A DNA stretch of 64,000 nucleotides from Pseudomonadota bacterium (GTDB lineage Bacteria > Bdellovibrionota > UBA1018 > CAIMNF01), in NCBI GenBank assembly GCA_027491115.1, contig JAIXWV010000035.1, positions 170 to 64,169 on the forward strand, given 5' to 3'. The translations under genes were made by a program, and so were the position numbers. Below the pieces are notes generated by a model that had not been told where the DNA came from, did not search any database, and was given only the letters and a program-made list of their open reading frames with translations. This document shows, in pieces, positions 1 to 28,897 of the stretch. Every line of letters begins with the position of its first letter. Within the stretch, counting starts at the first letter, position 1.

Positions 1-2
1 AT

Positions 3-4736: not shown

Positions 4737-5489
4737 TTAGTTCGCCTTACCGTTCAGGTCTGCATCTTCCTCGGTTTGGGACTCAGATCCGGGGAAGCTC
4801 ACCGGGCGCTCGGTCGGCATTTGACGGTGGGACACTGCTACGTTTTGATTGCACTGGGAGCTCTTCAGAATGCGCTGGATCTCGTGTTCCTGGCGCTCAG
4901 ACTTGGAATTGTCGACATCTGCAACCAGGGCACCGAGATCGGCAAGACCTTTGCCGAGCCTCTGGAAGAACTTACGCTTTCCGCAATTTTCCTCGCGGAT
5001 CGATTTTGCAAGTGAGCGAAGACCTTTTTCGGACTCACGAGCAGCATCTCTCAAAGCGTTACGGGCTTCGATCGCCTGCTGGAGCTCGACTTCACCCACT
5101 GCCAGTTCCTTCTCATCACTTGCCAACTCATCTTCGATCCTAGCGATCCGGTCGGCGCGATCCTTCGCGGTCACCTTCCTTGCATCACGGGCAGCATCAG
5201 ATGCACCCATGTCGCGGTCTGAAATCTTATCTTCCAATCGCTGGTCCTTCTCGATCTTGCGGATCAAGCGTTCCCTCTGGTTCATGATCTCTTTTTTGGC
5301 ACGAACGGCGACTCGCTTTGCTTCCACCACTCGCTCGGCTGCATCCAACTTGACCTGCAATTCACGGAGGTCATCAGCCTGACTTTGCAATTGGGTACCG
5401 GGATCTGCAAATGCCGACGGAATTGGGGCACCGGCCATCAAGGACACCACCACGACCAAGGAACCTAAGAACGACTTCTGATTCATCAT
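4737..5489 (-). CDS. Secreted coiled-coil protein
   Basis: Signal peptide from MMNQKSFLG; long E/K/R/A heptad-rich region. Confidence 0.7.
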   Translation of the reverse strand: MMNQKSFLGSLVVVVSLMAGAPIPSAFADPGTQLQSQADDLRELQVKLDAAERVVEAKRVAVRAKKEIMNQRERLIRKIEKDQRLEDKISDRDMGASDAARDARKVTAKDRADRIARIEDELASDEKELAVGEVELQQAIEARNALRDAARESEKGLRSLAKSIREENCGKRKFFQRLGKGLADLGALVADVDNSKSERQEHEIQRILKSSQCNQNVAVSHRQMPTERPVSFPGSESQTEEDADLNGKAN

Positions 5490-5501
5490 GCATAGACATA
5501 A

Positions 5502-5518
5502 AGCAAACAAGGTGCCAA
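5502..5518 (-). promoter_or_regulatory. Possible sigma-54 (-24/-12) promoter
   Basis: Minus strand reads TTGGCACCTTGTTTGCT, matching TGGCAC-N5-TTGCW, immediately upstream of the coiled-coil gene. Confidence 0.45.
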
Positions 5519-5752
5519 ATAGCCCTGAGGCCAGATCACGTTTTTTTCCTGTGATTACAAACACTGAAATCGGGAGCTCAACGAAGCTCATTTCATCATC
5601 TGAGTCTTCCACTGACAGCTGTCCAAGAAATTGACGGACCGGAGTGAAAGGCGTTTGGATTGGGTCTTGTGAATTTTGCGAGTTTTGAGAGAATCAGGGT
5701 CGTCGGCTCTTTTGTTTTTGCCGCTTCTCATAAGAAGGAAAAGGATTTCCTC

Positions 5753-6199
5753 ATGAATAACAAGCAGATCAAGCCCGAAGCCTACCCGCTCATCATCCAG
5801 GTGGTCCACAACCACTTGATGATTTACTCTCCCGACTTCAATTACCGGGTCGTCGAAACTTGGCGACCCCATGACATCGGGCAAACAGAGATGATGGTGC
5901 TGAAGATCCGTAAGGAGCTTTCCTATCGCCTCCAACTTTCATCGGGTCGGAACACCTCCCCTCCCCTGCCCAGCTCCCCCTCTTCTCTTCACCTTGTCGA
6001 GGATCAGGATTGGATCTCAACCCGAGACACCGCTCGCCTTCTTCAAGTGTCCGAAGAAACTGTCCGTCGCCTTGCAGACCAAGGCGGTCTTGCGTGCAGA
6101 CTCACTCCGGGTGGACATCGTCGGTTCAATCGAAAGACGGTTTCTGACTACCTGAAGCGGTCGCATGACCACCTTCGGCCCCTGGAAGGCGAAGCCTGA
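5753..6199 (+). CDS. BldC/excisionase-type (HTH_17) DNA-binding protein with HicB-like N-terminal domain
   Basis: C-terminal STRDTARLLQVSEETVRRLADQGGL..LTPGGHRRF; N-terminal YPLII..IYSPDF..PPLPS pattern resembles HicB. Confidence 0.75.
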   Translation: MNNKQIKPEAYPLIIQVVHNHLMIYSPDFNYRVVETWRPHDIGQTEMMVLKIRKELSYRLQLSSGRNTSPPLPSSPSSLHLVEDQDWISTRDTARLLQVSEETVRRLADQGGLACRLTPGGHRRFNRKTVSDYLKRSHDHLRPLEGEA

Positions 6200-6204
6200 T
6201 ACAG

Positions 6205-6480
6205 CGCAAGTATCGGTTTTCATTTGCCTCATTCTGAGAATTCCGAGAAAAAAGAGAATCATTCTCCATTTTCTACTTCTCCGATTCGTACGAATCGTCC
6301 TTTTCGTAAGTATCGGGCGATTCCCACAATGATCCTTCATCCACCTCAACGGACGAGGCGTGCGAATCGCCTGAAGCTACTTATTCTGTCAAAAAAATAT
6401 CAGAGGAAGATTCGTCGGGTTCAATCTATTCTCACAGATAAGGAATGATTCGAAGTTTGAACGTTTCGTGAATTGCGAAC
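6205..6480. repeat. Repeat-rich intergenic region, candidate centromere/par operator
   Basis: GAGAA at 6236, 6245, 6254 (9-bp period), inverted TTCTC/TTCTA at 6262, 6271, 6277; perfect palindrome CGATTCGTACGAATCG 6282-6297; CGYAAGTATCGG at 6205 and 6305. Confidence 0.5.
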
Positions 6481-6499
6481 ACATCTCAAGGAGAGAGAA

Positions 6500-7267
6500 A
6501 TGAAAATCTTCACCGTTGCGAACTCGAAAGGGGGGTCGGGTAAAACGACCACCGCCTTCAATCTGGGCCATGAGTTGGCCCGCCTAGGTAAAAAAATCTT
6601 GATGGTGGATTTTGATCCCCAAGCGAGCCTCACCAATAGCTTCAAGGTGGAATTACCCCAAGATCAGATCTACATCGAGGATCTCGTATCGAAAGCAGGG
6701 CAGGGGAAGCTCTCCGTCGCGGACGCCATTGTCCAACCCAAACCAAACCTCTTTTTGATTCCGTCCACCGGCGCGCTCGGAAATCTCGAGAGCGAACTAA
6801 AGGGACCCTCCGGACTCGTGAGACTCCGAGAGTGCCTGAAAGGGATCATCCATCTGGGATTTGATGCGGTCATCATCGATCCTCCGGGCTCATCGGATGT
6901 TTTCATGTCGATGTCATTGCTTGCGGCAAACGAAGTCATCATCCCGACCAGGCCGACTGACACTGACATCACCACTTTGAAGGAATTTGTCCCGTTTGTA
7001 GAAGAACATCGGGCCCTGAACCCTACCCTCAACATCAGGGGAATCGTACTGAATCAGGTTCAAAGTTCTTCGAAAAATGCACAATTTTACCTGGACCGTC
7101 TCACCGAGATCGGTCTTGGAAGCTTGATCTTCAAGTCCAGCATTCGATCTGCAATCGACGCGGCAAACTCACTCGCCTACGGGCAGTGTTCATCTGAACA
7201 CAAACCCAAGGCACCCGTATCAAAAGACTATCAAGAACTCGCCCAGGAGGTGACACCATGGCTCTAG
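6500..7267 (+). CDS. parA: ParA-family partition ATPase (short form, no N-terminal HTH)
   Basis: Deviant Walker A KGGSGKTT, VDFDPQASLT, IIDPPG; RBS AGGAG upstream of ATG 6500. Confidence 0.95.
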   Translation: MKIFTVANSKGGSGKTTTAFNLGHELARLGKKILMVDFDPQASLTNSFKVELPQDQIYIEDLVSKAGQGKLSVADAIVQPKPNLFLIPSTGALGNLESELKGPSGLVRLRECLKGIIHLGFDAVIIDPPGSSDVFMSMSLLAANEVIIPTRPTDTDITTLKEFVPFVEEHRALNPTLNIRGIVLNQVQSSSKNAQFYLDRLTEIGLGSLIFKSSIRSAIDAANSLAYGQCSSEHKPKAPVSKDYQELAQEVTPWL

Positions 7268-7593
7268 ATCATAACGCAGGACAAAAAAGATCTGTCGGAT
7301 TGGCTCGCAACCTTTTCGCATCAACGGACATTGCCCAAACAGCCCCTAATGCGCCGGTTGCTGGATCATTACCAAAGAGTGAACCCGCTTCAACTTCCAA
7401 CCGTAAGGTCGACCTGACACAGGGCGGCCAGGCGCGAACCAAGAAGATATCTTTTCTTGCAGATCCCCGCCTGGAAGAGCGTTTCCGCAAGGCGAGACTC
7501 CGGGCTGGATTTGACAAGCTGGAAGATGCCTACAACGAGGCCATCAAGACCTTTTGTGATTTGGTCGATGCGGGGAAGATTGACCGTTTCTGA
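7258..7593 (+). CDS. Putative type Ib centromere-binding protein (ParG-like ribbon-helix-helix)
   Basis: Overlaps parA stop; low-complexity N-tail followed by a beta-alpha-alpha pattern KKISFLAD/PRLEERFRKARLRAG/LEDAYNEAIKTF. Confidence 0.7.
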   Translation: MALDHNAGQKRSVGLARNLFASTDIAQTAPNAPVAGSLPKSEPASTSNRKVDLTQGGQARTKKISFLADPRLEERFRKARLRAGFDKLEDAYNEAIKTFCDLVDAGKIDRF

Positions 7594-7652
7594 TCAGAAA
7601 TGAGCTCCGTTTTTAGCTAAAACCTTCTCCTGATTTCTGCTAAAAGTAGGGC

Positions 7653-9302
7653 ATGGCAAAATCCCGTCCTGACCTTCTCAAGTACTACCGTCTTGGAGGC
7701 CAAGAAATCGCGATCATCTCCGTATACGGAGTATTGATCGGGTTTTTGTCCTTGTCTATTCCCATTGCGGTACAAAGTCTCGTAAACTCGGTTGCATTCG
7801 GTTCTGTTTTGCTTCCGGTTTTCATACTTTCTTTAATGGTGTTCCTTGGACTCGGGTTCAGTGGAGCATTGAAATTAGCCCAGAGAAAAGTCGTTGAATG
7901 GATCACGATCAAGGTATTCTTCAAGACGACGATCGCTCTGGGTCGACACCTTCCCAGTCTGAAGGAAGAAGCTCTCGACACCACATATGACAGGACGTAC
8001 TTCTCCAGGTACCTCGAGCTTTTTTCGGTCCAAAAAAACCTAAGTGGCCTGTTGGTCGATCTTCTCGATTTTGTGCTGATCGTAGGATCAGGGATGTTGA
8101 TTGTAGCCTTGTATCACCCAGCATTCTTGGTGTTCGACATCCTGCTCGTATTCTCGCTGTTTTTTGTAGTCCGTGTGGTGGGCAAAGACGGAATCGACAC
8201 CAAGCTGGACGAATCGGAGAGCAAATACGACCTAGCAACGTGGATGATGAGCCTTTCTAGGCCGGCCGTGGCACTCCGGGGATTAAACGGGATCGAATTG
8301 GCACAAGAAAGAACCCAATCTCTCGCGGACACTTTCATCGAGACACGCTCCAAGCACTTTAAGGTGCTGTTTCGACAACAAGCCGGCTTCCTGCTGATTT
8401 CAGTACTTTCCTCTACTGCTCTACTCGGAGCAGGCGGGATACTTGTTTTCAATAATCAACTCTCGCTCGGCCAATTGGTCGCCGCCGAAATCATTCTCGC
8501 AGGAGTGCTCGCATCCATTGGTAAATTGGATAAAATCATGGAGAACTATTTCGGGATCGTGGCATCCATTGGAAAACTGGAAAGCCTATTCGCCATTCCA
8601 GCTGAAGAGATCAATGAATCAGGCCATTTCCCTGCAAAGCTCTCCGGGAAGATCCATTTGGATGGAATCAATTACCGTTACCCTGGGGGTTCGGAACTTT
8701 GGATCCCCATTCACCAAACCATTGCACCCGGAGCTAAAGTTGCCATCAAGGGTCCTTCAGGTTCAGGGAAAAGTACCCTCTTGGAACTCATTTATGGATT
8801 GCGCAACCCTTCAGAAGGTCAGCTCCTTTTTGACGACTTAAACTCTAAGGATCTACACCTAAAACGTTTTCGCGATTACATCGGTTTCACTTCAATTTTT
8901 CAGGTAATCCCCGGAACCCTTCTGGCGAACATAGAGCTTGGCAGAAGGGTCGATTTCCCTCATCTGACATCCCTAGTGCGGGATCTCGCACTTGAGGAGT
9001 CAATATCCGCTCTACCGAACGGTTATCAAACAGAACTAGAACCTGTAGCCCTTCCGTTCTCAGTCGGACAGAAGGCTCGCTTTTCACTCCTCAGAGCGTT
9101 GGCGCACTCTCCCGAAATTCTGATCATCGATGAATCTCTCGATCAAATTGACCCCGATCTCCAGGATCGGGTTTGGGAAGTCATCCGGGCCAGGATGAAG
9201 GGCAAGACCGTTTTGATCGCCACACATGACGAAAGAATTGTGAAGAAATGTGATCAGATCATTGAACTTAGAAGATCCCGGAATGTGGGAGGTGACACAT
9301 GA
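7653..9302 (+). CDS. Type I secretion/export ABC transporter (TMD + ATPase)
   Basis: Multiple TM helices, LSLGQLVAAE, Walker A GPSGSGKST, signature FSVGQ, ILIIDE, H-loop ATH. Confidence 0.92.
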   Translation: MAKSRPDLLKYYRLGGQEIAIISVYGVLIGFLSLSIPIAVQSLVNSVAFGSVLLPVFILSLMVFLGLGFSGALKLAQRKVVEWITIKVFFKTTIALGRHLPSLKEEALDTTYDRTYFSRYLELFSVQKNLSGLLVDLLDFVLIVGSGMLIVALYHPAFLVFDILLVFSLFFVVRVVGKDGIDTKLDESESKYDLATWMMSLSRPAVALRGLNGIELAQERTQSLADTFIETRSKHFKVLFRQQAGFLLISVLSSTALLGAGGILVFNNQLSLGQLVAAEIILAGVLASIGKLDKIMENYFGIVASIGKLESLFAIPAEEINESGHFPAKLSGKIHLDGINYRYPGGSELWIPIHQTIAPGAKVAIKGPSGSGKSTLLELIYGLRNPSEGQLLFDDLNSKDLHLKRFRDYIGFTSIFQVIPGTLLANIELGRRVDFPHLTSLVRDLALEESISALPNGYQTELEPVALPFSVGQKARFSLLRALAHSPEILIIDESLDQIDPDLQDRVWEVIRARMKGKTVLIATHDERIVKKCDQIIELRRSRNVGGDT

Positions 9303-10300
9303 GCTTCTCCGAATCGGAAATCATGAAGCATGCAAGAACGGCAAAAATCCTCTCTTGGTCTTTTGTCGGGTTCCTGCTCTCTTTGGCACTTCTACCCTGG
9401 GCCCAAACCGTGATCGGAAAGGGAAGGGTGGTGGCGTTTTCTCCGACCGAAAGGGAGCAGAGAATCATTGCACCCATCGACGGCAGAGTGAAGAAATGGT
9501 TCATCGCTGAAGGTTCCATAGTTAAAAAAGGGGACCCGATTGTCGAATTGACTGATGTTGATCCAGACATTCTGAAGCGACTCGAGCAAGAGCAGATTGC
9601 CACTAAAAAGAAAATCTCTGCAGCCAAACTCGGGATTGAAACCTCGAGAAAGAACCTCCAGCGGCAGGAAAAACTTTTCGAAGAAGGCATTTCTTCTAGA
9701 AGAAGTTATGAATTGGCGAATCTTGAGCTGGTGAAGTATCTCACGGACGAAGCCAATGCCACCTCTGAATTAGCCAAGTTGGACGTCCGCATGGCAAGAC
9801 AGGCGGCTCAGTTGGTCTCTGCACCCGTTGACGGGGTCATCACCAAGCGTCTCACAGGCCAGGAGGGTGAGGTTGTCAAGATCGGAGCCGAACTCTCCGT
9901 GCTGATTCCCAGTACGGATTCACGTGCCGTAGAGCTATGGGTTCGGGGAAACGACATGCCCCTGATCCACAAAGATCAATCCGTCAGACTCCAGTTTGAG
10001 GGATGGCCGGCCATACAGTTTTCGGGCTGGCCCTCGGTGGCAGTGGGAACATTTCCCGGCAAAGTCCTTTGGGTGGATCCCACCAGTAATGAAACTGGAG
10101 AGTTTAGGATCATGATTCTACCGGAGGGCGGAGTAGGGAATTGGCCGGATCCAGGATTTCTCAGACAAGGCGTTAAAACGTTGGGTTGGGTCAATATCAA
10201 GTCTGTCTCCATCGGATACGAACTTTGGCGTCAGTTCAATGCTTTCCCCATTGTCCCCGAAATCAAGACCGGAAAAAAAACGAAGGACGGCAAGGAATGA
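9299..10300 (+). CDS. HlyD-family membrane fusion protein
   Basis: N-terminal TM, lipoyl-like APIDGRV..EGSIVKKGD, coiled coil, VRLQFEGWPAIQFSGWP. Confidence 0.92.
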   Translation: MSFSESEIMKHARTAKILSWSFVGFLLSLALLPWAQTVIGKGRVVAFSPTEREQRIIAPIDGRVKKWFIAEGSIVKKGDPIVELTDVDPDILKRLEQEQIATKKKISAAKLGIETSRKNLQRQEKLFEEGISSRRSYELANLELVKYLTDEANATSELAKLDVRMARQAAQLVSAPVDGVITKRLTGQEGEVVKIGAELSVLIPSTDSRAVELWVRGNDMPLIHKDQSVRLQFEGWPAIQFSGWPSVAVGTFPGKVLWVDPTSNETGEFRIMILPEGGVGNWPDPGFLRQGVKTLGWVNIKSVSIGYELWRQFNAFPIVPEIKTGKKTKDGKE

Positions 10301-11691
10301 TTCGCCACTTGGCAATGATCGGATTGACGCTCTGGACGGGTGAGGCCCAGGGAGCACTTCGTTTCTCCGAGTTGGCGGGGCGAATCTTAAGTGAGTCTGA
10401 TCTGAAATCCCAGATCGAGAGTGATCGCCTTCGAGTATTTCTCGAATATCAAGTCGCTGTCGGGAACCAGTTCGATCCCGTACTAAAGGCCAAATACTTC
10501 GATCAATTCCGGGGTGACTATATCCAGCGCCGCAAAGAACTCAGTGTGATGCAAAGACTCTCTGTTTGGGGTTCGGCAATCGAGTTCGGTTATAATAAGA
10601 GCCAGGGTGATTTCGCGGACTACGATGGAAAGTACATGACCCAGGACGGGGGCTCCCTCCGTGCGAAATTGGACATACCAATCTTGAGGAACGGGTTCAC
10701 AGACAGTCTCAGGGCCGCTCTCAGAAAAGGGATTATCTCCAAAGAAGTCTCAGAGCTCCAAGCGCGTTCTCAATCCTTGGACCTGCTCCGCCAAATCGGA
10801 TCGCGTTATTGGGATTGGTACCTCAGCGGTCAGCGCCTAAATGTCGCGGAAAAAATCCTTAAGCTCGCTGAGGACCGCCAAGAAAAAATCCGAATTCGTG
10901 TGGAAAGGGGAGATATCGCCAAGATTGAGGAGCTGGAAGGTGACCGAACGATCCTTCAGAGAAAGTCCTCTCTGGCACAGGGAAATCGTTTATTCACTCG
11001 TGCGAGGCTAGACCTTGAGGCCTTGTTAAGTACTCGTACGGAGAAAATTCCCGAGCTCTCCCTCACTGAAATTCCTGAAATTCCAATTCCAACCAATCTG
11101 ACCTCGTCCTCGAATGGCTGGAAGCAATCTGAGATGGAGGATGCAGAAACCCATCCAGAAGTTAGACGCCAGAGGCTTGTGCTCGAACAGACCGGCATTG
11201 ATCGAGAGCTTGCCGGTAACCAATTCCTTCCCAAATTGGACTTTTCTGTAGAGGCTGGCGAGAATCTCGGTACTGAGGTTTACGGTCTCAGCAAGTTCAG
11301 AATGAATGGAGGATTGTTTTTCGAATTCCCCATACCGTCCAGGGCTGCTTCCGCCCGGATTTCACAAGCGGAAGCACAATGGGTGCGGCAAGAAGCGACG
11401 GCATCCCTCACCTTGGTCAGGATTCGCAACCAGATCTCAGATTCTGGCGTGGCCCTTGGTTTGGCCATGGAACGCCTCCGTTTGGCCACCTCGGAGATGG
11501 AGCTTGCAAAAAAACTGGTGGACCTGGAGAGCAAGCGATTCCTCGAGGGTGATTCAAACCTTCTTCTTCTCAACATCAGAGAACAAAACCTTGCGGAAGC
11601 CGAGATTCGTAAATTCGAAGCATTCTCAGAAATGAAAAAATCTGAAATCGATCTCAATGCTGCACAAGGCCGGCTCAAACTTGTTGACTAA
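10297..11691 (+). CDS. TolC-family outer membrane efflux protein
   Basis: Third gene of the ABC-HlyD operon (ATGA overlap); signal peptide; LPKLDF; E..RF.EGDSNLL motif. Confidence 0.88.
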   Translation: MIRHLAMIGLTLWTGEAQGALRFSELAGRILSESDLKSQIESDRLRVFLEYQVAVGNQFDPVLKAKYFDQFRGDYIQRRKELSVMQRLSVWGSAIEFGYNKSQGDFADYDGKYMTQDGGSLRAKLDIPILRNGFTDSLRAALRKGIISKEVSELQARSQSLDLLRQIGSRYWDWYLSGQRLNVAEKILKLAEDRQEKIRIRVERGDIAKIEELEGDRTILQRKSSLAQGNRLFTRARLDLEALLSTRTEKIPELSLTEIPEIPIPTNLTSSSNGWKQSEMEDAETHPEVRRQRLVLEQTGIDRELAGNQFLPKLDFSVEAGENLGTEVYGLSKFRMNGGLFFEFPIPSRAASARISQAEAQWVRQEATASLTLVRIRNQISDSGVALGLAMERLRLATSEMELAKKLVDLESKRFLEGDSNLLLLNIREQNLAEAEIRKFEAFSEMKKSEIDLNAAQGRLKLVD

Positions 11692-11730
11692 CTGAGTCAT
11701 TTCCGACTGGTACGAATTCTTACCATAAAC

Positions 11731-11739
11731 TTTTCCACA
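11731..11739 (+). promoter_or_regulatory. Possible DnaA box
   Basis: TTTTCCACA fits TTWTNCACA but overlaps an inverted iteron, so it may be coincidental. Confidence 0.35.
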
Positions 11740-12040
11740 GAGTACGAATTCAGGCGTTCAGACAGGCGCGAATTCGAACTATTTAGAAATGAATTCGTAC
11801 TCTCTGGAAAAAATGCTTGAGTTCATCCCGTTGGGTCGGCAAAATTTTCTTAATGACAGGGTGTCCCTCCAAATCAATGACCGAGTTATGTCCCAATCCG
11901 GGTAAGGTTGCGGCCATAATTCGTACCGTCTGGAAATTTGAATCGTACCGGATGGAATTGTATTCGTACCCAACGGAAATAATCGCAACTTTAATTCGTA
12001 CTTGCTGGAAAAAGCTCTCGGCCCCAATCCCCGGAGTGAG

Positions 12041-12062
12041 CATGAAATTTCGTCATTTCATG
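12041..12062. promoter_or_regulatory. Inverted repeat between the two forward iteron clusters
   Basis: CATGAAAT-TTCGTC-ATTTCATG, perfect 8-bp arms. Confidence 0.45.
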
Positions 12063-12294
12063 GACTTAATCCAAATTTCCGATGAGCCGGCTTCGTTCAT
12101 CCAGGGACAGGCCGAATTTCGCACCTCGCGGAAAATCAATTCGTACCCCTTTGAATTTTTCATGAGCAGAATTCGTACCCAATGGAATTCTAATCGTACC
12201 GGATGGAAAGCGGCCTCTGAAATCATTGGGAAATTGCCCTATTTAGCGGGTCCTATAAATACGTTTTTATTCATTAATAAAGGAGAAGAGAACG

Positions 12295-13914
12295 ATGACT
12301 CACTTAAGCACTGAAATCGTACTCCAAGGAAACCTGGCTGTGGTGAAAGAGGAACAAAGAGAACTCTTCAATCCTGATTTCACTGTTGAAGCCAATTTGG
12401 TGAAATACTCTGCATTGTTCCCCCCTCATTCTCCAGAGACCCCCCTGTACAGCACCCGACATATTGATGCACTTAATTCCACAGGAGGCGGTGGGATCAT
12501 CGTGACCCAACTGACCACTTCGACATCACCCATTTCAAACAAAGGGAAGATCGAGCAGGACAGGGTGCCCGGTGATTTTGAGAAGAAGGTGTTTTACGCG
12601 ATTGTTTCAATCTGGGTAACCAACGGAAAGCCTGCAGACGGCATCGTCCATTTTTCGATCGGAAAGCTCATTGAACAACTTGGATTGAGCACCGGTGGGA
12701 AGAACTACAAGATGGTCAAGGAAGCCATTAGCAGAATCAGTCGGTCGACCATCAAGATCGAAGGATCTTATGTCTCTGCTCCGGATTTCAGAAAAGACAC
12801 AAGAGAATTTTCACTCTTTGCTGATTGTCAGGAGAGTCAATCACGAAGAGGTCGCAAAAGCCTCAATGGCAATATTGAGACCGATTTTTATAGGATCCGT
12901 CTCAATACAGCCATTGTCAGTAACATGATCCATGACTATTCCATTGTCATTCAGGTGAAGGATTATACTTCAGCATCAAGCAAGTATTACCGCAGACTAG
13001 TGGACATTATTGAGTTTGAGTTCCAAAAAGGTTCCGGTTTGGGGCAAGAAAAAATCGAGTTTCTGCTATCGCAATTGGCCAAAAACCTTCCTTTGGAAGG
13101 AGAAGCCTCTAATGTCAGTACCATATTGAAAAGACTTTCCGCATCACTCAGAGAATTGGTCGATCTAGGAGGATATCGCTATGATGTCACAAAAGTTGGG
13201 AATAATGCGCTCCTGACCATCTATTCCAAGACACATACCCGAAAAATCCTGACACAAAAAACGATTGAAGAGGAGATTGAAGAATATTTCAAAATTCACG
13301 AGCGGTTGTTCTCAATTCCGATTTGGGGCACGCTCAGTGAATCACAAAAGGCGGTTTCTGACTTTTTGTCGGCAGACCAAGCCAGGATTGATTTCGATGG
13401 AAAATCCTTCCTGAAGCCAGTGCACATACTTGATGTATTGATGTTCCAGTACCATGTTCGGAATGGGAAAAAACAACTTCGGAAGTGGTCTGCTGCCAAC
13501 GAGGAACGAGGCTCGATTCTCAGGATCGCGAGGAGCATCCTGAACGGATCGAACACTCTCAAATATCCGGACGGCTACAAGACGTATTTTGAACGGCTCC
13601 GTGACGCTGAAGCCTTGATTGCGAAGAACCAGCTCGAAGCCCGAGAGCAGGTGAGGACTCAAAGTGCTGCCCAGGAGGCCGAAAAGCAGGCGCGCAACCT
13701 TTATTTGGAGTTGAATGCATCAGGGCTCAATCACTATTTGAAAAGGCTCAGAGAAGAGTTTCCGAAGCTGCCTGAAGAAGCGATTCGCAGCGAGAAAATG
13801 ATCACCGATACCATCATGGAGGACATCCTAGACGGATCCTTGAGTCGGGTTCACTTCAAGAATCTGCAACCTCAGTTAGAGCGAGCACCCTTCAGTAAGG
13901 GTGAAATAAGTTAA
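12295..13914 (+). CDS. Putative plasmid/chromid replication initiator (winged-helix Rep; RepA/TrfA-like)
   Basis: Directly downstream of the iterons; PGDFEKKVFYAI..VHFSIGKLIEQLGLSTGGKNYKMVKEAISRI..STIKI resembles the first winged helix of iteron-binding Reps; strong RBS AGGAG. Confidence 0.78.
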   Translation: MTHLSTEIVLQGNLAVVKEEQRELFNPDFTVEANLVKYSALFPPHSPETPLYSTRHIDALNSTGGGGIIVTQLTTSTSPISNKGKIEQDRVPGDFEKKVFYAIVSIWVTNGKPADGIVHFSIGKLIEQLGLSTGGKNYKMVKEAISRISRSTIKIEGSYVSAPDFRKDTREFSLFADCQESQSRRGRKSLNGNIETDFYRIRLNTAIVSNMIHDYSIVIQVKDYTSASSKYYRRLVDIIEFEFQKGSGLGQEKIEFLLSQLAKNLPLEGEASNVSTILKRLSASLRELVDLGGYRYDVTKVGNNALLTIYSKTHTRKILTQKTIEEEIEEYFKIHERLFSIPIWGTLSESQKAVSDFLSADQARIDFDGKSFLKPVHILDVLMFQYHVRNGKKQLRKWSAANEERGSILRIARSILNGSNTLKYPDGYKTYFERLRDAEALIAKNQLEAREQVRTQSAAQEAEKQARNLYLELNASGLNHYLKRLREEFPKLPEEAIRSEKMITDTIMEDILDGSLSRVHFKNLQPQLERAPFSKGEIS

Positions 13915-15107
13915 GGTTTTTTCTTTTGGCGTTGACCGATCGGGATCTTGTATCCACCTTCCACTATGAACTGGATGGATCCGATGGGAGTATGCTCCAG
14001 CCGGTCTCCGGCGGAATTGACCAGAGCATTGTCAATCTTGATGTAGGTTCCGCGCACTGTCGGTTGCAAGAAGAAGTTTCCAAGCCCGAGCCGCACGTGA
14101 GCATCGGCGTGGCCACCATAGCCAGCAATATGAAAATTGTTGTCCACGCCTTCCCAGTTCCACCAGCTGTCTTGATGGAGCTTGACGGTAGTCTGGGGAA
14201 TCATAAGACCTGCACCCGCACCGCCGCCAACCCCTAGCGAGAAACGGTTGTTCTTCGAATGCCAAAGACCTTTTTTGTAAACCGCGCCGACATGGGCATA
14301 GTTGTAACCGTTGGTATGGTCAAAGTACAACCAACGCATGTCACCGGTTGCCTTGACTTGGTCGAAATTGAGACCAGAAAGAAGGGATGGGTCGCCACTG
14401 GGATGGGGCACGAAGACAGTTCGATTGTATTCCCCGGTGACTTCGTACCTCCTATCATTTTGAAATACCCACTTCATGTGATCGAGGCCGGCGACAATGT
14501 CCCAGTTTTCATTTACCTCGTAGCCAATTTTTAGGTTGTACTGTGGAATGGGAATTCGAGTGGGATGGATATAGTCCAACAGTTCCTTGGATTGCCGATC
14601 ATGTCCGACAGCATCATGGATTGTGAAGGTTCCGGAGGCGGTTTTGAATGTAGCATCTGATGTGGTGTGAAATCCGCGATGGTATCCCCAAGTGATGTAA
14701 ACAAAGCGTTTTTTCTTTGGAGGGACGTTCACCAATGGCGAGGCGTCACGAGGGAGGGGGTTCGTGTTCACTACGGGTATGTTGCAGGTTGTGCAATGGG
14801 GTTGACCGGGCATTACAGGCGTCGGAGAAGCCGAAGCTGCCACGGGAACAGTCTCCACTACCACTTCCACGTCAAGAAGTTCGAGCTCACCTGCCTGAAT
14901 CTGGTTCTCAGAGCTTTTCAGGACATGTTCTTTCGACTGGTTCGCCAAATCATCGATTTTAGAATCTTTGAGGGAAACTTTATCAAGCTCCTCAAAGGGA
15001 ATAACCTGACGGAGAGCCTCAGGGGACTCTGCCATGGAATGGGTGAACGGGTAGAAGCAGGTCAGAACCAACCAAAAAATGGCCATCATCGAATGTCTTT
15101 TCGTCAA
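13911..15107 (-). CDS. Exported, probable outer-membrane beta-barrel protein
   Basis: Signal peptide; alternating amphipathic strands (YITWGY, IPQYNLKIGY, GLDHMKW, VEGGYKI). Confidence 0.6.
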   Translation of the reverse strand: MTKRHSMMAIFWLVLTCFYPFTHSMAESPEALRQVIPFEELDKVSLKDSKIDDLANQSKEHVLKSSENQIQAGELELLDVEVVVETVPVAASASPTPVMPGQPHCTTCNIPVVNTNPLPRDASPLVNVPPKKKRFVYITWGYHRGFHTTSDATFKTASGTFTIHDAVGHDRQSKELLDYIHPTRIPIPQYNLKIGYEVNENWDIVAGLDHMKWVFQNDRRYEVTGEYNRTVFVPHPSGDPSLLSGLNFDQVKATGDMRWLYFDHTNGYNYAHVGAVYKKGLWHSKNNRFSLGVGGGAGAGLMIPQTTVKLHQDSWWNWEGVDNNFHIAGYGGHADAHVRLGLGNFFLQPTVRGTYIKIDNALVNSAGDRLEHTPIGSIQFIVEGGYKIPIGQRQKKKP

Positions 15108-15166
15108 AAAACAGTCGGGACTTAAGCCTAATTTATTATTAGGGAATACAAATGGTTAGGCTGAGT

Positions 15167-15403
15167 TCATTTCGAGAACCAGTCTTTAATCTTCAGAATG
15201 AGCCAAACCAATCCATTCAGAATTAAGATAGTGGTGAATGGAAAATAGAATTTGAAGTTCTGCTTTTCATAAGAAAAATCGCCGGGAAGGTGACCCAGCC
15301 ATTTCAGGCGGTCACCCAGTCCCCATAACAAACCACCCACTAGACAAAGAATGACTCCAATGACGAGTAGTGTTTTTCCTGATTCTTCCTGTGTCATGGG
15401 CAT
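15167..15403 (-). CDS. DUF2905-family small membrane protein
   Basis: LGHLPGDF..NFKFYFPFTT motif with two TM helices. Confidence 0.85.
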   Translation of the reverse strand: MPMTQEESGKTLLVIGVILCLVGGLLWGLGDRLKWLGHLPGDFSYEKQNFKFYFPFTTILILNGLVWLILKIKDWFSK

Positions 15404-15491
15404 TGAAATACTTTGTAGCAAGACAAAGGTCAATATTCGGTATTTTAAATTAGGTTTGGGACTCTGATGTTCCTCATGTTCCAATGAGTCC

Positions 15492-16442
15492 ATGAATCGG
15501 ATTGTCTCTGGTATTTCTTTTTTGGGGCTATTTATCAGTCTTCAAGCATTTCCTGATCAGTTTGGCAGCTCGAGTTCAGTTGGGGGAGGAACCCTTTCAC
15601 AAACTTTGAGTCTTTCAAAGCGTTTCAAGGGCCCTAAAGAGGAAGAATCAAGGTCAGTGTATCTTGCGTATACCATGACACAGAACGAGATCGGGTCTAC
15701 TACCGGAACGTCTTCGAATGCATTCAACTATACTCACTCGATGAGTACAACTTATTCGGTCTCAGGAAACACACGTCGTGGCCTGAGTGGGTCATTTTCA
15801 ACCACGCCCGCAGAAAACCTGAGTTCTTTCGGAGCAACAGGTTTCTTATCCAAGAGTATTGAGCTCGGAACCAGGACCGAGGCGGAAGAAGATGATGATT
15901 CGTTTCTTCCCACTATCGGGGTCAGGGGTTCGGTCGGTTACCAACATTATGCCCAGACTGTTTCAGACGATTCTGGCTCTAAGCGGAAGGGGAGTCGGCG
16001 GAAGCGCACTCGTACTGAGGAGCAATCTATCGGAAAAGTTTCTCTCGATCTGACCTTGAACCTCGATCTGTTTGAGTCGTTTGGTGTTTTTGGGTCGTAT
16101 ACCCGGTACGTGTACACCAGAGATGTAACGGACTTCATGGATGTATTGGATGACCCTCGAGCCATTGCTTCTGGTGCAGCCGAATTTAGTTCGACTCTTT
16201 CAGGTTTTTCTTCGAATGAAATCGAAGCTGGGGTGGATCTGACTTTGCCACTGGATCTTTCGCTGGCTATCTCGAAAAGCCTTGCCGCCAATGAGACCAC
16301 CTCGGTGATCACCCACGCGTACTCGGTAGAATTGAACAAGGATTGGGGGAGTTACTGGAGTACTGGAATTGGGGCTGACCGATTCGTGAGCAATGGAAGC
16401 TCCCAGGATCTTTATAACTTTTCTCTATCTTACAGTTTTTGA
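15492..16442 (+). CDS. Outer-membrane beta-barrel-like hypothetical protein
   Basis: Signal peptide, S/T/G-rich strands, C-terminal YNFSLSYSF beta-signal. Confidence 0.65.
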   Translation: MNRIVSGISFLGLFISLQAFPDQFGSSSSVGGGTLSQTLSLSKRFKGPKEEESRSVYLAYTMTQNEIGSTTGTSSNAFNYTHSMSTTYSVSGNTRRGLSGSFSTTPAENLSSFGATGFLSKSIELGTRTEAEEDDDSFLPTIGVRGSVGYQHYAQTVSDDSGSKRKGSRRKRTRTEEQSIGKVSLDLTLNLDLFESFGVFGSYTRYVYTRDVTDFMDVLDDPRAIASGAAEFSSTLSGFSSNEIEAGVDLTLPLDLSLAISKSLAANETTSVITHAYSVELNKDWGSYWSTGIGADRFVSNGSSQDLYNFSLSYSF

Positions 16443-16443
16443 T

Positions 16444-17238
16444 TCATTCAACAGTCTTCTTTAGGACCATGCACAGCGAGAGCCCAGGAATCCGGATGCC
16501 GAGTCTGGCTAACCATCTGCTAAGATGTGCATCGGTGTTCAGTACCCTTCCGATTCCCCGGGTTGCGGGGTGACTTTCGTGGTGCTTCCATTCGCTCACG
16601 GTGTGTGAGGATTCCACCTCCGGTTTCACTCCGAAAAAGAACTCGAGGATTTTCTGGATCACACGGACAAAAAAGAGCAGGTGAAAAAAGTAGAAGGACT
16701 CCTCGATTTTGACTTCGGATGGGCTACGGATCAAATACATCAAGTGGGCACGATGGTAACGTCGGAAGTGTTTGAGCCTGAGGTCATGAAATGAAAATAG
16801 AAGTTGAAAAGCAGGGACGGTGATCAGGAGCAGGCCGCCCGGTTCGAGCATGGAGATCAGTCGGTTCAACAGGGCCTCGTCATCGGCCACATGTTCAAGA
16901 ACATCCAGCGCACAAATAGCGCGATACTTGGTGTCACCGAGTTCTTCGAGACTCTTGAACATCGAGACCCCCGGAGTCGGTCCTGACGGGTCCGGGAATG
17001 CAGTATCGACCGCATCGACAGGAGCTCCTGTCTTTTTATGGAGCTGGAGTGCGAAATAGAGGTCACCCGCTCCGATATCGAGAATTCGGTCCTTCGGTGC
17101 GAGGTGCCCATGGGCTTCCAGCACGTGCAAAATGAACTTTGCGCGGGAAAGCTCCCAAGGGTGGCGGTGAGGGTTACTTGAGAGTTCTGAAAGGTCCAAG
17201 GTCGATTTCCTTTGTGATGTCTTCACAGCTGGCTTCAC
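16444..17238 (-). CDS. Class I SAM-dependent methyltransferase
   Basis: ILDIGAGD, LDVLEH, LEPGGLLLITVPA; start uncertain. Confidence 0.88.
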   Translation of the reverse strand: MKPAVKTSQRKSTLDLSELSSNPHRHPWELSRAKFILHVLEAHGHLAPKDRILDIGAGDLYFALQLHKKTGAPVDAVDTAFPDPSGPTPGVSMFKSLEELGDTKYRAICALDVLEHVADDEALLNRLISMLEPGGLLLITVPAFQLLFSFHDLRLKHFRRYHRAHLMYLIRSPSEVKIEESFYFFHLLFFVRVIQKILEFFFGVKPEVESSHTVSEWKHHESHPATRGIGRVLNTDAHLSRWLARLGIRIPGLSLCMVLKKTVE

Positions 17239-18478
17239 CCGAAACCAGTCTTGAGTAGGACAATCCTAGCGTGTTGTTTTCAGTCTGAAACCACGCCTCG
17301 GAGCGAGAGGTCCAGTCTAGGAAATAGGCGTTCCCGAGAAAAATTGCAAATCCCAAACAGATGAACAGGAAAGCAGGACGGACCAACGGAGCTGACCGAA
17401 TGAGCTTTCTATAGGTCAGGGCAGCGAGCACGACAAAAAACGGCCAGGCGGCGATGGCCCGAAGGGAGTGGGGGACGCTCTCCCAGGTGAGTGCGGAGGG
17501 TAGGATTCCCAAGATGGCTCCGGCCATGATGAAGCGTATTCCCTCGCTCGGGAGGGTTCTTTTGCGGATCATCATGATGGAGCCTGAGAGTGCTCCACCC
17601 ACCAGAAGCAGGTACTCGACCGGGCTCATCATTCCCACCGCCCCAGTCGAATGTCTCAGGTTGCGATCCCCCGAAAGCATCAGGAAGTCGGGACTCAGGT
17701 GACTGAGGAAGTTTTGAATTGCAGACCACAGGATTTCAAGTACCCCCGAATCATGAAGTGGGCTCATCGGGTGACTGCTCCAGAGCACCAGCATCTCGGC
17801 CCGTGCGGTGAATCGAGGATCAACCAGTGTGCGCCAGAAAACTGGCGCAAGGATGATGCATAGAATTGCCATTGAGTACGATTTCTTTTTCCATCCGAGA
17901 CCGGGAAGCAAGAGTACCAGCGGAAAGGTGAGGATCCGTGTACCCGGGTAAGCCAAGGACGCCAATCCGAACGCCAGGGCTCCCAGTACCCAATGGAAGC
18001 GCCATTTCAGTGATTCAAAGGCATAGAGGCCGAGTACGATGAAGCACGCTGAAACGGGTGGATCCCAGGCGATACGTGAGAATTGAAAGACCCAGGGCGA
18101 AACACTGGCAAGCAGGGCTGCGGCCAGGGCGGTCTCTTCATCTTCTTTTTTTCGTACCCAGAGGAAAATGAAGACCACCGTGAGGCAGGTGATGAATGCG
18201 GGGAAGGTTCGAAAAGCAGCGGTCGAAACACCGAAGATGCGGGTCCAGAGAGCTTCTCCATACAAATAGGGCGCTGTGTAGTAACCCGCCCCGAGACCTG
18301 CAGAAAACAAGGGAAAGGCGTTTCCGAAGAGGTCTTTACCCGTTTCTCCTAGACAAAGCGCATGCGCGGCTCCCACAGCCTCATCCACATAAAATCCGGG
18401 AGGCGAACGGTCGGTCGCTATGAATCGAACAGCATTCAGGATCAGGATGGCCCCGATGGTCCAAGCTCGAAGTGACAT
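17174..18478 (-). CDS. GT39/ArnT-like integral membrane glycosyltransferase
   Basis: PPGFYVDEA motif, SPW..FSRIAW, many TM helices, GDRNLRHS. Confidence 0.85.
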   Translation of the reverse strand: MSLRAWTIGAILILNAVRFIATDRSPPGFYVDEAVGAAHALCLGETGKDLFGNAFPLFSAGLGAGYYTAPYLYGEALWTRIFGVSTAAFRTFPAFITCLTVVFIFLWVRKKEDEETALAAALLASVSPWVFQFSRIAWDPPVSACFIVLGLYAFESLKWRFHWVLGALAFGLASLAYPGTRILTFPLVLLLPGLGWKKKSYSMAILCIILAPVFWRTLVDPRFTARAEMLVLWSSHPMSPLHDSGVLEILWSAIQNFLSHLSPDFLMLSGDRNLRHSTGAVGMMSPVEYLLLVGGALSGSIMMIRKRTLPSEGIRFIMAGAILGILPSALTWESVPHSLRAIAAWPFFVVLAALTYRKLIRSAPLVRPAFLFICLGFAIFLGNAYFLDWTSRSEAWFQTENNTLGLSYSRLVSGEASCEDITKEIDLGPFRTLK

Positions 18479-18494
18479 GACCCCATGATGCCCG

Positions 18495-18513
18495 AATTCG
18501 TACTGGATGGAAA
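18495..18513 (+). repeat. Isolated satellite iteron
   Basis: AATTCGTACTGGATGGAAA, full consensus match, in the 39-bp gap between two genes. Confidence 0.7.
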
Positions 18514-18517
18514 CGGC

Positions 18518-20572
18518 TTAGATTCCGGCGCTGAGTCCGATCGAAAAGTTTCGTGGCATTGCAGGCTCGATGCCGTTGCTTCTCACCCTCGAGAAGTAGG
18601 ATTCATCGAGGAGATTGAAGACTCCGGCAAAAACCGTGATGCTCGTTCGTGGGATTTTGGCATCGATCGTGAAATCAAGCACCCGGTAAGACGGTATCCG
18701 TCGGTTGGAACTGTTTCCGTCATCTCCAAAGTGGTCGGAAACAAAGGTGTGGAGCAGGCTCGCCTTGGCGCGGTTTGTGAGATTCGAGTAGAGGCCGTTT
18801 TTGATGAGCCATTTCGGTGCATATTGCGGCGTTTTCCCGGATAGTGAACCCTCCTTGAAGCGGGCGTGAAGAGCGGTGAGGTTGCCGACCCAGTGAAGGT
18901 CCATGGATCCACGAAAAATCTCTAGGTCATACGCGGCTTCGAGCCCTTGGTGAATCGCCGCTCCGGTGTTCTGGAGGATGTTCCCAACCCGGCCGAACTG
19001 ATCCGAGTACGAGATCAAGAAGGCAGAGACATCCCAGGTGAGGCGCTCGCTCAGGCGATCACGTATCCCCGCTTCGAGCGTCCAAGCATTTGCTGGCTTC
19101 AGATCTTCACTGATCAAGTCTCCGTTATTCAAAGGAACGGTGTCTTGGAATGCCATTGGACGGTAACTCTGCGAAAGATTGAGGTAGGCCTCGTGCTGCG
19201 AGTCGAGTTTTTGTTCCACACCAAGGCCGAAAAGCGGCACATGGACCCATTCGGAAGTGTTGCGGAGCGGGACCACGCTCCCCGAGTTCAAGTTCTCGCG
19301 GATCGACTGGTAGATGTTCTCGATCCTGATTCCGGGAGTGATCGAAGTGTTCCCCCACTCAAATCGTTCCTCAAGGAAAAGGGATACGGTCCGGGTCTTC
19401 CTGTCGATGTTCTTCTGGGCCGTTCCCGACGAGGCATCTGCGCTACTTCCCTGTTCCTGGATGAAGGGGGAGTCCACGGCGTAAAGGAGTACGCCCGAAG
19501 ACAGGGTGTTTCGTTCTGCAAGGAAAGCGTGGTCCCATTTGATGCGGGTATCGCTCGCCAAGGTGTAGAAGCTTTGCTTCTGAATCGTATTGGAGGGAGC
19601 GTTTGGAGTCCCTCCAAACTGGGTGGCGGATCCGAGATTTTGCCGGTAGGAGTCACGAGTGAAACCACCCCCGTATAGCTGTGAGGTCAAAAGGAGCCCC
19701 GGGCTGCGTTCATTGCGGTACTCAAGTGAGCCGAAGTTCCGTCCGAGCTCGAGTCGGTCGTTGGGAGTGGTGGTCAAAGTGCGGTCGACGGCAGGAGACG
19801 CAAGTCCCCCCGGCTCACCGTGTTTGGATCCGTAGACATGGGCCGAAAGAGAGAGAGTCTCGCCCCTGCGGAAGGCGTGGAGCCAATTCATCCGGGCTTG
19901 GCCGATATTGTAGCGGCTGTTCGACTGCCGGAATCCGTCGCTGGAGCGGCTTTGTGCTTCAACCAAAATCGAATCTTTTCCGGAAACCGGAATTTGAGTG
20001 CCCAACGAGTAGGTATTCGAGTTGTAGGTTCCATTACGGAAACCGGACCACAGTTTGAACCCCTCACCGATTTTGGGTTTCCGCAGTTGATAAGAAACTG
20101 CCCCACTCGGCATCGGACCATACAGGAGTCCGGCGCCTCCTCGAAAAAATTCCGTGCGCTCAATCCACTCCGCGGGTGGCTGGTAGTAATTGGCCCCATA
20201 GCCGTACATGTCGGCAGCGAGAGGGACTCCATCCGCAACGAAGAGCAAATTTTGGGACTCGTGGGGATCTCCAAGTCCTCGAACACTCATGGAGGCGAAG
20301 CTCTCGTTGTTGACCTCGCTCACCATGATCCCGGGTGTGCGCGCAAATTGGTACCGATAGTTGTTGGTCGGAGCCACAGGGGCAGCGCTCGCATCGATGA
20401 CGATCACTTTCTTCCCCTTTTTGAGAGTGGTCTCACGTGTTTCCGAAACCATGGGCGATAAGGATTGACGCCAAGAGTCAGAGTCTCCCGTGACTTGGAT
20501 TTCAGGAAGAGTCAGATCATCTGCAGCCCAGGCAATCGGCATACGGATTGAGAGCAGAATCGAAACAATCAC
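18518..20572 (-). CDS. TonB-dependent receptor (FecA-like)
   Basis: TonB box-like EIQVTG, plug motifs SVRGL and FFRGGAGLLYGP, C-terminal NLLDESY..PAMPRNFSIGL; start moved to GTG 20572. Confidence 0.92.
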   Translation of the reverse strand: MIVSILLSIRMPIAWAADDLTLPEIQVTGDSDSWRQSLSPMVSETRETTLKKGKKVIVIDASAAPVAPTNNYRYQFARTPGIMVSEVNNESFASMSVRGLGDPHESQNLLFVADGVPLAADMYGYGANYYQPPAEWIERTEFFRGGAGLLYGPMPSGAVSYQLRKPKIGEGFKLWSGFRNGTYNSNTYSLGTQIPVSGKDSILVEAQSRSSDGFRQSNSRYNIGQARMNWLHAFRRGETLSLSAHVYGSKHGEPGGLASPAVDRTLTTTPNDRLELGRNFGSLEYRNERSPGLLLTSQLYGGGFTRDSYRQNLGSATQFGGTPNAPSNTIQKQSFYTLASDTRIKWDHAFLAERNTLSSGVLLYAVDSPFIQEQGSSADASSGTAQKNIDRKTRTVSLFLEERFEWGNTSITPGIRIENIYQSIRENLNSGSVVPLRNTSEWVHVPLFGLGVEQKLDSQHEAYLNLSQSYRPMAFQDTVPLNNGDLISEDLKPANAWTLEAGIRDRLSERLTWDVSAFLISYSDQFGRVGNILQNTGAAIHQGLEAAYDLEIFRGSMDLHWVGNLTALHARFKEGSLSGKTPQYAPKWLIKNGLYSNLTNRAKASLLHTFVSDHFGDDGNSSNRRIPSYRVLDFTIDAKIPRTSITVFAGVFNLLDESYFSRVRSNGIEPAMPRNFSIGLSAGI

Positions 20573-20587
20573 AAGGCCGATACCCTT

Positions 20588-20606
20588 ATTGATAATCATT
20601 ATCATT
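20588..20606. promoter_or_regulatory. Fur box
   Basis: ATTGATAAT-C-ATTATCATT, near-perfect 9-1-9 Fur consensus upstream of the TonB receptor. Confidence 0.8.
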
Positions 20607-27955: not shown

Positions 27956-28897
27956 GTGCGGAAATCAGGGCAATTTCCGGTCATGGTTTGGCTAATTCGG
28001 GTTCTGATCGTGGTGTGGGCATTTCACGGATTTACCGTGTTTGCGGAGCCACGGGAAGAGGCGGCCACACTCCTCGCCAAGCACCATCATTCAGAGACTA
28101 TCAGCGCCCGGTTGAGTGCTTTCTCCTCCGAGTTCCTGGGACTTCCCTACGGGTCCACCGGCCCTCTCGGTGAAGGTGTTTCCGGCCGGTACGATCAAGA
28201 TCCTCTCTATCGCTTTGACACTTTCGATTGCACCACTTTTGTCGAAACCGTGGTCTCGCTTGCCCTCTCAAATAATGTGGATGCCTTTGAGAACTCCATG
28301 AATCGCATCCGCTACCAGGGGGGTGAGGTGGAGTTTCTGAGGCGGAATCATTTTCCGAGTCTTCAGTGGATTCCGAACAATCTCTCGAACGGGATGTTCG
28401 ACGAGGCCAATTCCAAAGTGATACCCGTTGAAGAGCAGGCATTGGCAGAAGCGAACATCGATGTCGGGGGATGGCTCAGGAAATCGGGCCCCGGATTGAT
28501 TCAAATCCCCGGTCTTTCGAGCTCCGAGCGCGCGGAGCGTGGAATCGAGCTTCAGCGTCTGGGTGACCGGTACTCACCCGAAAAAGCGACCCTTTTTTAC
28601 ATTCCAATCGCCCGGTTGCTCAAGGAGCCTGCTTTGCTCCGGCGCATTCCAGATGGCGCCATCATCAATTTTGTCAGACCGAATTGGGATCTGACCGCTT
28701 CCATCGGGACGCACATGAATGTCTCGCATCAGGGTTTGGTCTTCCGAACCCCCGAGGGTGTCCGACTCCGCCACGCAAGTGTGGGGGGCGAAAAAAAGGT
28801 CATGGATGTGAGTCTGCTGAAATATTTGAAGAATTTCGAGAACCATCCCACCATGAAGGGGATTCACCTGCTCACTTTGCGTGAATCAGGGCTTTGA
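27956..28897 (+). CDS. DUF1460 N-acetylmuramoyl-L-alanine amidase-like protein
   Basis: FLG.PY, FDCTTFVETV, RNHF, VSHQG, RHAS. Confidence 0.88.
   Translation: MRKSGQFPVMVWLIRVLIVVWAFHGFTVFAEPREEAATLLAKHHHSETISARLSAFSSEFLGLPYGSTGPLGEGVSGRYDQDPLYRFDTFDCTTFVETVVSLALSNNVDAFENSMNRIRYQGGEVEFLRRNHFPSLQWIPNNLSNGMFDEANSKVIPVEEQALAEANIDVGGWLRKSGPGLIQIPGLSSSERAERGIELQRLGDRYSPEKATLFYIPIARLLKEPALLRRIPDGAIINFVRPNWDLTASIGTHMNVSHQGLVFRTPEGVRLRHASVGGEKKVMDVSLLKYLKNFENHPTMKGIHLLTLRESGL

Follow-up and report, generated by a model that had tools for sequence, protein, structure and literature searches.

Among the closest described systems, mini-F ori2 with its initiator RepE and the R6K gamma origin with its initiator pi carry direct repeats (iterons) of about 19-22 bp that adjoin an AT-rich tract and the rep gene, and inverted copies of these repeats act as an operator. 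In P1 (incC/incA) and pPS10, two or more iteron groups around rep, phased at about two helical turns, divide initiation from copy control, the incA repeats of P1 serving only to titrate RepA, and in RK2 the initiator gene trfA is distant from oriV. Host DnaA boxes are common, but not universal, in iteron origins. RctB, the initiator of Vibrio cholerae chromosome 2, acts on several classes and locations of binding sites, remote ones included, with methylation-dependent 12-mer and 39-mer sites among them. According to excerpts of PMC4980987, iterons measure 17-22 bp and are bound by Rep cooperatively, the cooperativity is lost when two iterons are shifted half a helical turn apart, and the winged-helix domains WH1 and WH2 of pi and RepE contact a few bases each. 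Here we analyse a repeat array within a 64,000-nucleotide stretch of bacterial DNA (the window; positions 170-64169 of a 77,199-bp contig, C8), where it lies directly before, and reaches into, the gene of a 539-residue initiator, Rep (12295..13914, plus strand). An earlier note, made from the letters of the window alone, had put the array forward as a novel origin. We consider it likely that the array serves a circular plasmid, about 77 kb in size, as its iteron-type theta origin, combined with Rep control sites; it works like the origins of mini-F, R6K, P1, pPS10 and RK2, and the proposed novelty holds for the plasmid family and not for the kind of origin.

A phased bipartite repeat array in front of rep

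The repeat has the core TCGTAC-N5-GGAA, two boxes whose centres are 10 bp apart and which therefore face the same side of the helix. Thirteen exact copies occur across the 64-kb window, 10 of them within 11701-12331, where three further copies with one or two mismatches complete a total of 13 array slots. The left group opens with two exact, inverted cores on the minus strand (11701..11715 and 11733..11747, at -594 and -562 relative to the rep ATG), whose starts are 32 bp apart and the first of which recurs within 1 bp at the related loci L009, L010 and L011. It continues on the plus strand with a degenerate copy bearing two mismatches (TCGAAC-N5-AGAA, 11774..11788, -521), which scores 21.6 against a position weight matrix (PWM), and with an exact core at 11795..11809 (-500) that forms with the 11733 copy an inverted repeat of 22 nt, 95% complementary. 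Cluster A then presents four direct copies on the plus strand (11921..12010; core starts 11921, 11943, 11964 and 11996, at -374, -352, -331 and -299), spaced by 22, 21 and 32 bp, and cluster B another four (12119..12208; core starts 12119, 12141, 12173 and 12194, at -176, -154, -122 and -101), spaced by 22, 32 and 21 bp, with one-mismatch cores at 12119 (TCGCAC in box 1) and 12141 (TGAA in box 2). The last copy, exact and on the plus strand, occupies codons 8-13 of rep itself (12317..12331, +22), 123 bp past the last copy of cluster B. The three gaps between groups measure 126, 123 and 123 bp between flanking copies, and their lengths are constant in most of the related loci. Direct reading of the sequence and a motif scan thus recover, at every coordinate, the motif and all copies listed in the earlier note, which counted from 3 nt upstream of the cores used here, together with the spacing of about two or three helical turns that it had described, as this applies within the groups (21, 22 and 32 bp).

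Compared with mini-F and R6K, with which it shares direct repeats adjoining an AT-rich tract and rep, the array is distinguished by its 13 copies in four groups with fixed 123/126-bp gaps, by one copy inside the coding region, by inverted copies standing 500-600 bp upstream of rep and by the lack of a conserved DnaA box. Unlike the iteron groups of P1 and pPS10, both main clusters lie upstream of rep, and such control sites as there may be are single copies at distances of kilobases rather than a second block behind the gene.

The repeats are strongly enriched at this locus. The 13 exact matches in the window compare with 0.09 expected, and none of 100 shuffles got to 13. The earlier note had named a motif scattered genome-wide with no enrichment here as a refutation, and this is not what we find: all 45 contigs of the genome (2,547,609 bp) together contain 15 exact matches, 13 of which fall on C8, and no match to a reversed control pattern. 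With the PWM, which was derived from the 13 array sites and makes their own scores circular, a score of at least 19 is reached by four further sites on C8 and by only one site elsewhere in the 2.55 Mb genome. Furthermore, single Logan contigs from three runs in three studies, possibly including the source sample, cover 11000-13500 with 0 differences, and five other assemblies hold the same layout. The array is therefore real and strongly conserved and no assembly artefact: an origin by chance or by misassembly, for which we see nothing to plead, is negligibly probable in view of the shuffles, the identical sequence in contigs of three runs and a layout common to six independent assemblies.

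In line with the regular spacing in the window, 45 of the 46 same-strand neighbour spacings below 60 bp at six loci of the lineage deviate by at most 1 bp from a multiple of 10.5, a count that is not one of independent observations, since the six loci are homologous. The five loci compared with that of the window (L009, L010, L011, L013 and L014) encode Reps that are 96, 94, 90, 67 and 72% identical to Rep, respectively. All 13 slots recur at identical offsets from the rep ATG at L009 and within 1 bp at L010, and 11 of the 13 are kept at L011 under the same relaxed pattern; at L013 and L014, where the Reps have diverged to 67% and 72% identity, most slots are kept and cluster B has one extra copy. 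When the four closest loci are compared over the 13 slots, columns without variation amount to 74 of 78 in box 1 and 46 of 52 in box 2, against 24 of 65 in the spacer and 27-34 of 52 in the flanks. The boxes are thus conserved while the spacer drifts, a footprint of selection on the boxes, and the division into two conserved boxes and a variable 5-nt middle, which had been read from the window alone, holds across these loci. The -500 copy departs from the pattern in that its spacer, too, is invariant across the four close loci. The +22 copy is found in all six loci and in L012 besides, and as it is kept where the Rep N-terminus is otherwise unconserved (only M1, V9 and G12 are invariant among residues 1-20, and residues 1-24 are modelled with a predicted local distance difference test score, pLDDT, below 50), the constraint there acts on the DNA.

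Rep, its sister initiators and the co-change of repeat and Rep sequence

A ribosome-binding site precedes the ATG of rep by 9 nt, and the product of the gene is predicted to consist of tandem winged-helix domains followed by a C-terminal helical region. By sequence, Rep scores 22.6 bits against Pfam Rep3_N (PF01051, Rep_3, WH1), barely above the cut-off of 22.4, the Pfam scan returns no match to Rep3_C, and the C-terminal 230 residues match no Pfam family. A word-indexed search gathers nine Rep clusters of 62-100% identity, and an exhaustive profile search with an alignment of the close family (A1) over 1.84 billion representative proteins yields 65 at E <=0.001, 21 of them at <=1e-10. No relative appears in phage records or IMG/VR, and the plasmid collection, searched with tblastn, contains no close relative and only three remote genes, at 24-28% identity, on plasmids of Rubrobacter and Deinococcus, where they are annotated as trfA or repA. 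Among 33 aligned members, 31 match RPA, 7 TrfA, 7 Rep3_N and 3 DnaA_N, and eight of nine sister Reps scanned singly score 30-50 bits against RPA, so that most relatives fall in with RPA and some with the TrfA of RK2, the Rep of the window itself staying under the RPA cut-off.

A first structural model, built from nine sequences, was poor (pLDDT 56.5) and is superseded by one from the 33-sequence alignment, with a pLDDT of 79.9 and a predicted template modelling score (pTM) of 0.73. This model has 48 matches in the PDB at E <=0.001, and the 47 listed are all winged-helix initiators. The best is RctB domains 2-3 (E 1.3e-9 over 307 aligned columns), and among those listed are also RepE54-iteron complexes, a Rep-iteron-DUE complex (8aan) and the pi-iteron complex (2nra). 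For mini-F RepE (PDB 1rep, 2z9o) and R6K pi (PDB 2nra) the TM-scores are about 0.6 when normalised to the target, with E-values of 3.5e-6 to 5e-4; compared with either protein, Rep is only 10-15% identical, about twice as long and extended at both its N- and C-terminal ends. The two-winged-helix architecture that the earlier note had assumed for Rep is thus what the model predicts, a tandem WH1-WH2 initiator fold, and a bipartite motif of one helical turn would suit a pair of such domains that contact consecutive major grooves from the same side of the helix.

The nearest predicted fold is therefore that of the initiator of ori2 on V. cholerae chromosome 2 (PDB 5tbf, 5ubf; RctB as described in part of PMC5397143), and the two proteins are alike in being long, multi-domain initiators built around a plasmid-type winged-helix pair. 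Rep is nevertheless not a member of the RctB family, as the likeness is one of fold only, with no sequence relation (0 matches in a profile search of the PDB). The replicons differ as well. The iteron described here lacks GATC, so that Dam-type control is not expected; no second class of sites resembling the 39-mer is seen; and the plasmid that encodes Rep is dispensable, being carried by 3 of the 14 further genomes searched within the genus.

As a separate observation on the family, a DnaA N-terminal domain (PF11638) is found in 3 of the 33 distant Rep relatives (alignment A3; best E-value 1.5e-07), which hints that some initiators of the family may borrow the helicase-contacting module of DnaA.

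The association of repeat and initiator extends well beyond the close lineage. Sister Reps of equal length and only 22-26% identity each stand behind an array of their own, made of 6-13 phased repeats whose sequence differs: AATCGCAC-N3-CACGGAAA in 13 copies, TACCGTGTTTGCACGAAAG in 9-10 copies, TGTCCTTACACGGAAAT, or repeats of the CAGAAACTAC type in up to 14 copies. In these arrays 26 of 32 short spacings are in phase, and an isolated copy sits beside the rep start in each of the four studied closely (L026, L031, L032 and L042). Box 1 differs by lineage (TCGTAC, CGCAC, ACCGTG or TGTCC), and the second box stays of the (CAC)GGAA or CACGAAA type. A repeat sequence that changes with the initiator within a constant architecture is the expected signature of cognate Rep-iteron pairs.

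Two further observations concern the sister loci. In most of them the 40-mer of lowest stability adjoins the repeat array and is an AT-rich element whose arms are of the TAAGTA...TACTTACTTA type, at 55-66 bp upstream of the rep ATG in L026, L032 and L039 and at 576-734 bp upstream in L035, L036 and L038; the wider family might thus have an unwinding element in common. In addition, L032 and L042 both come from one genome of the same genus (G345). The iterons of these two sister Reps differ in sequence, as they should in replicons that are compatible and share a cell, although co-residence is not certain in an assembly of 620 contigs with 5% contamination.

Copies of the motif also occur away from the array. 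A loose group of five distal sites spans 17867..19525, with starts at 17867 (minus strand) and at 18152, 18498, 19364 and 19511 (plus strand), and a sixth, exact site lies on the minus strand within an amidase-like gene (28180..28194), so that the six stand 5.5-16 kb from rep. Between C8 and contig C2 of a related genome (G001:C2), none of the 60 box positions of these sites has changed, against 6 of 30 spacer positions and a local identity of 81-90%. The distal sites are therefore probably real Rep sites, and may act in handcuffing, titration or regulation.

One of them bears on the possibility that the repeats are bound not by Rep but by an unrelated transcription factor, of host or plasmid, that controls rep together with the efflux operon upstream. 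Site 18498 lies in a 39-bp intergenic gap, 20 bp upstream of the start of a PMT_2-type glycosyltransferase gene, as a regulatory site might, and a gene of the HTH_17/MerR type is present at 5660-6199. On the other hand, 13 phased copies far exceed what regulators normally use, only two exact copies exist in the genome outside C8, and the tie to Rep-family genes holds in distant relatives. We thus regard control by such a factor as very unlikely.

A circular plasmid and its candidate origin

The array belongs to a replicon of its own. C8 has a GC content of 0.519, compared with about 0.55 for most other contigs, and G001:C2, a contig of 78,196 bp with a 69-base overlap between its ends, is circularly permuted relative to it: positions 1-19985 of G001:C2 match C8 57241-77199, the sequence from 20169 onward matches C8 from base 1, and the last 1,360 bases match C8 55953-57309. 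The permutation and the terminal overlap define a circle of about 77-78 kb, of which C8 lacks only some 180 bp. In the genome of the window, dnaA is found on contig C1 only, and ParA/ParB pairs are located on C1, this one being chromosomal, and on C39. C8 carries a ParA-type ATPase gene (6473-7267, plus strand) overlapped by an open reading frame (ORF) for 111 residues of no known family (7258-7593, plus strand), and the two (6473-7593) are probably the partition pair of the same plasmid. A Pfam scan of 56 ORFs on C8, some 16 smaller ones lying outside it, detects no second initiator and no conjugation gene. The ParA/ParB pair on C39 (G000:C39:111096-112272) lies near a PWM match of 18.7 at C39:110398, which we record as a side observation.

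The presence of a partition system raises the question of whether the repeats could be its centromere, read by the partner protein of ParA and not by Rep. Some plasmid centromeres are indeed also made of phased short repeats in two blocks, as described for R1 parC in excerpts of PMC2241845, and beside parA itself we find only two small repeat pairs, that is, no strong repeat set and no clear repeat-type centromere that would fill the role. The array, however, lies 4.1 kb downstream of the par pair with the efflux operon in between, and it abuts and enters rep; in the sister replicons the repeat sequence changes with Rep, and a bipartite motif of one turn suits a reader with two winged-helix domains. 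A centromere is for these reasons highly improbable.

The composition of the circle places the array at a turning point of strand asymmetry. The cumulative GC-skew minimum falls at 9-13 kb in C8, where the array occupies 11.9-12.5 kb; in G001:C2 it falls at 30-34 kb, a range that includes the rep start (33.0 kb). The maxima lie roughly opposite in both plasmids. The origin proposed in the earlier note is accordingly supported from several sides: the predicted Rep fold, the observed footprint on the boxes of an enriched and phased array, the change of repeat together with Rep, the separate circle, with no second initiator among its scanned ORFs, the skew minimum at the array and a motif that is not scattered through the genome.

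The most serious competitor retains Rep as the reader and moves the start of synthesis, such that the array would be only the Rep operator and an incompatibility (copy-control) locus, with replication initiated elsewhere on the plasmid. Precedents exist in RK2, with trfA distant from oriV, and in the incA repeats of P1. The absence of a conserved DnaA box or site for the integration host factor (IHF), the overlap of the strongest AT-rich tract with the rep ribosome-binding site, the additional Rep-type sites 5.5-16 kb away and a raw skew minimum at about 9 kb, 3 kb to the left of the array, would all accommodate such an arrangement. Against it, the 77 kb circle contains no other cluster of the motif, an array directly before rep recurs across Reps of only 22-26% identity, and the skew minimum takes in the array in both plasmids. 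We therefore judge a pure operator and copy-control locus to be unlikely, and return to the array as an origin with Rep control sites.

Two candidate unwinding elements can be named in it. The first is a conserved AT-rich tract, CTATAAATACGTTTTTATTCATTAATAAAGGAG..., at 12253..12292 (-42), which lies in a region where the GC content drops to 0.30-0.33 in 60-bp windows (12220-12319), as the earlier note had anticipated. In six of six loci this tract, between cluster B and the +22 copy, is the least stable 40-mer of a stretch that reaches from about 1.5 kb before the rep ATG to 1.8 kb past it. The second is the iteron-free gap between clusters A and B (12011..12118; 123 bp from core start to core start), where a 40-mer of low stability is found at -254 to -274 in five of the six loci. 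The same gap contains a palindrome, CATGAAAT-N6-ATTTCATG, at 12041-12062, which the earlier note had given a place in the layout; it is present as described, and we dropped it as a functional element on finding, in an alignment of the upstream regions, that five relatives do not conserve it.

A promoter-like element, TTGAGT-17 nt-CAAAAT (11817..11845, plus strand), stands directly to the right of the -500 copy and points through both clusters toward rep. The TTG of its first hexamer and the whole of CAAAAT are kept in all six loci and the 17-nt spacer varies, while a sigma-70 consensus scan of 11500-12500 returned 0 promoters, the element scoring under its threshold; its function as a promoter is putative, and it may drive rep or activate the origin. 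Taken with this element, the head-to-head left group (11701-11809) looks like an operator, a second candidate beside the 12317 copy, for which autorepression, as the earlier note had envisaged, is plausible; an isolated rep-proximal copy is found family-wide. Two other features of the region were considered and rejected, namely a lone DnaA-like 9-mer at 11731, which belongs to an iteron and is lost in relatives, and a 165-residue ORF that runs over the array (11817-12314), as its counterparts in relatives have large insertions, including a block of 21 nt, and are conserved only at the iterons.

The mechanism that follows, from the binding of Rep through melting and the recruitment of the helicase to repression, is inferred by comparison with RepE, pi and TrfA. 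Each Rep monomer would bind a unit of about 22 bp, its two winged-helix domains reading TCGTAC and, a helical turn further on, GGAA. With spacings of 21, 22 and 32 bp, the bound Reps would all line up along the same side of the double helix, where they could cooperate, bend the DNA and melt the adjacent AT-rich tract, most likely at 12253-12292 or, alternatively, in the gap between clusters A and B. The host helicase would then be loaded and replication proceed in both directions. The left inverted copies with the promoter-like element next to them, the +22 copy and the distal copies would probably serve autorepression or copy-number control, by roadblock, looping or handcuffing.

Several points weigh against an origin at this place or limit how closely it can be defined. 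By sequence, Rep falls short of the cut-off of 27 bits for Pfam RPA (PF10134, 'Replication initiator protein A') with a score of 21.1, matches nothing in NCBIfam and has 0 matches at E <=1 in a PDB sequence-profile search. The 123 bp between clusters A and B correspond to 11.7 turns and leave the two clusters out of mutual phase. Neither a DnaA box (TTATCCACA, the E. coli consensus, with <=1 mismatch) nor an IHF consensus is conserved across the six loci, so that the unwinding site is not pinned down. The AT-rich tract at 12253-12292 includes the rep ribosome-binding site and possibly a promoter, and could be merely these. The skew minimum is a broad one of about 4 kb, and its recurrence in two closely related plasmids counts effectively as a single observation. 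A fork moving rightward would meet the genes that follow rep (13911-24765) head-on, since these are on the minus strand. Finally, the likely assignment to a host, an uncultured freshwater genus of Bdellovibrionota related to the predator Bdellovibrio, rests on metagenome binning.

A more elaborate, RctB-style control by multiple sites can also be imagined, in which the clusters would fire the origin, the six distal sites would act as a remote checkpoint or in handcuffing, replication would be tied to the filamentous, non-binary cell cycle of the Bdellovibrio type, and the initiator, in place of DnaA boxes, would recruit the helicase through its own C-terminal domain. As a whole, this scheme strikes us as rather unlikely.

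Cargo, distribution and significance of the plasmid

Beyond replication and partition, C8 encodes transporters, a TonB-dependent receptor, an opine-type dehydrogenase, a large surface protein with Ig domains and a Y-family polymerase, a cargo that is probably relevant to niche adaptation. At 51173-55796 and 18518-20605 of the window, we also note an ABC transporter set adjoining a staphylopine-dehydrogenase-like gene, plus a TonB-dependent receptor, and this gene content suggests plasmid-encoded uptake of an opine-type metallophore. The broad Rep profile finds a match in 16 of 401 genomes sampled from the phylum; of the 14 other genomes searched in the genus, three have the same Rep and iteron type and two have sister types. 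As the Rep type occurs in only part of the genomes of the genus, the element is accessory.

At the level of titles and abstracts, which is not proof of absence, we found no description in the literature of a native iteron plasmid in Bdellovibrio-like organisms. The initiator represents a rare branch, with only 65 matches in 1.84 billion representative proteins and a predicted fold nearest to that of RctB. The natural series of Rep-iteron pairs could serve the study of how winged-helix specificity changes and of the compatibility of co-resident plasmids, and a conserved circle of about 77 kb with a defined Rep-iteron module would offer a natural start for shuttle vectors in predators that are hard to manipulate.

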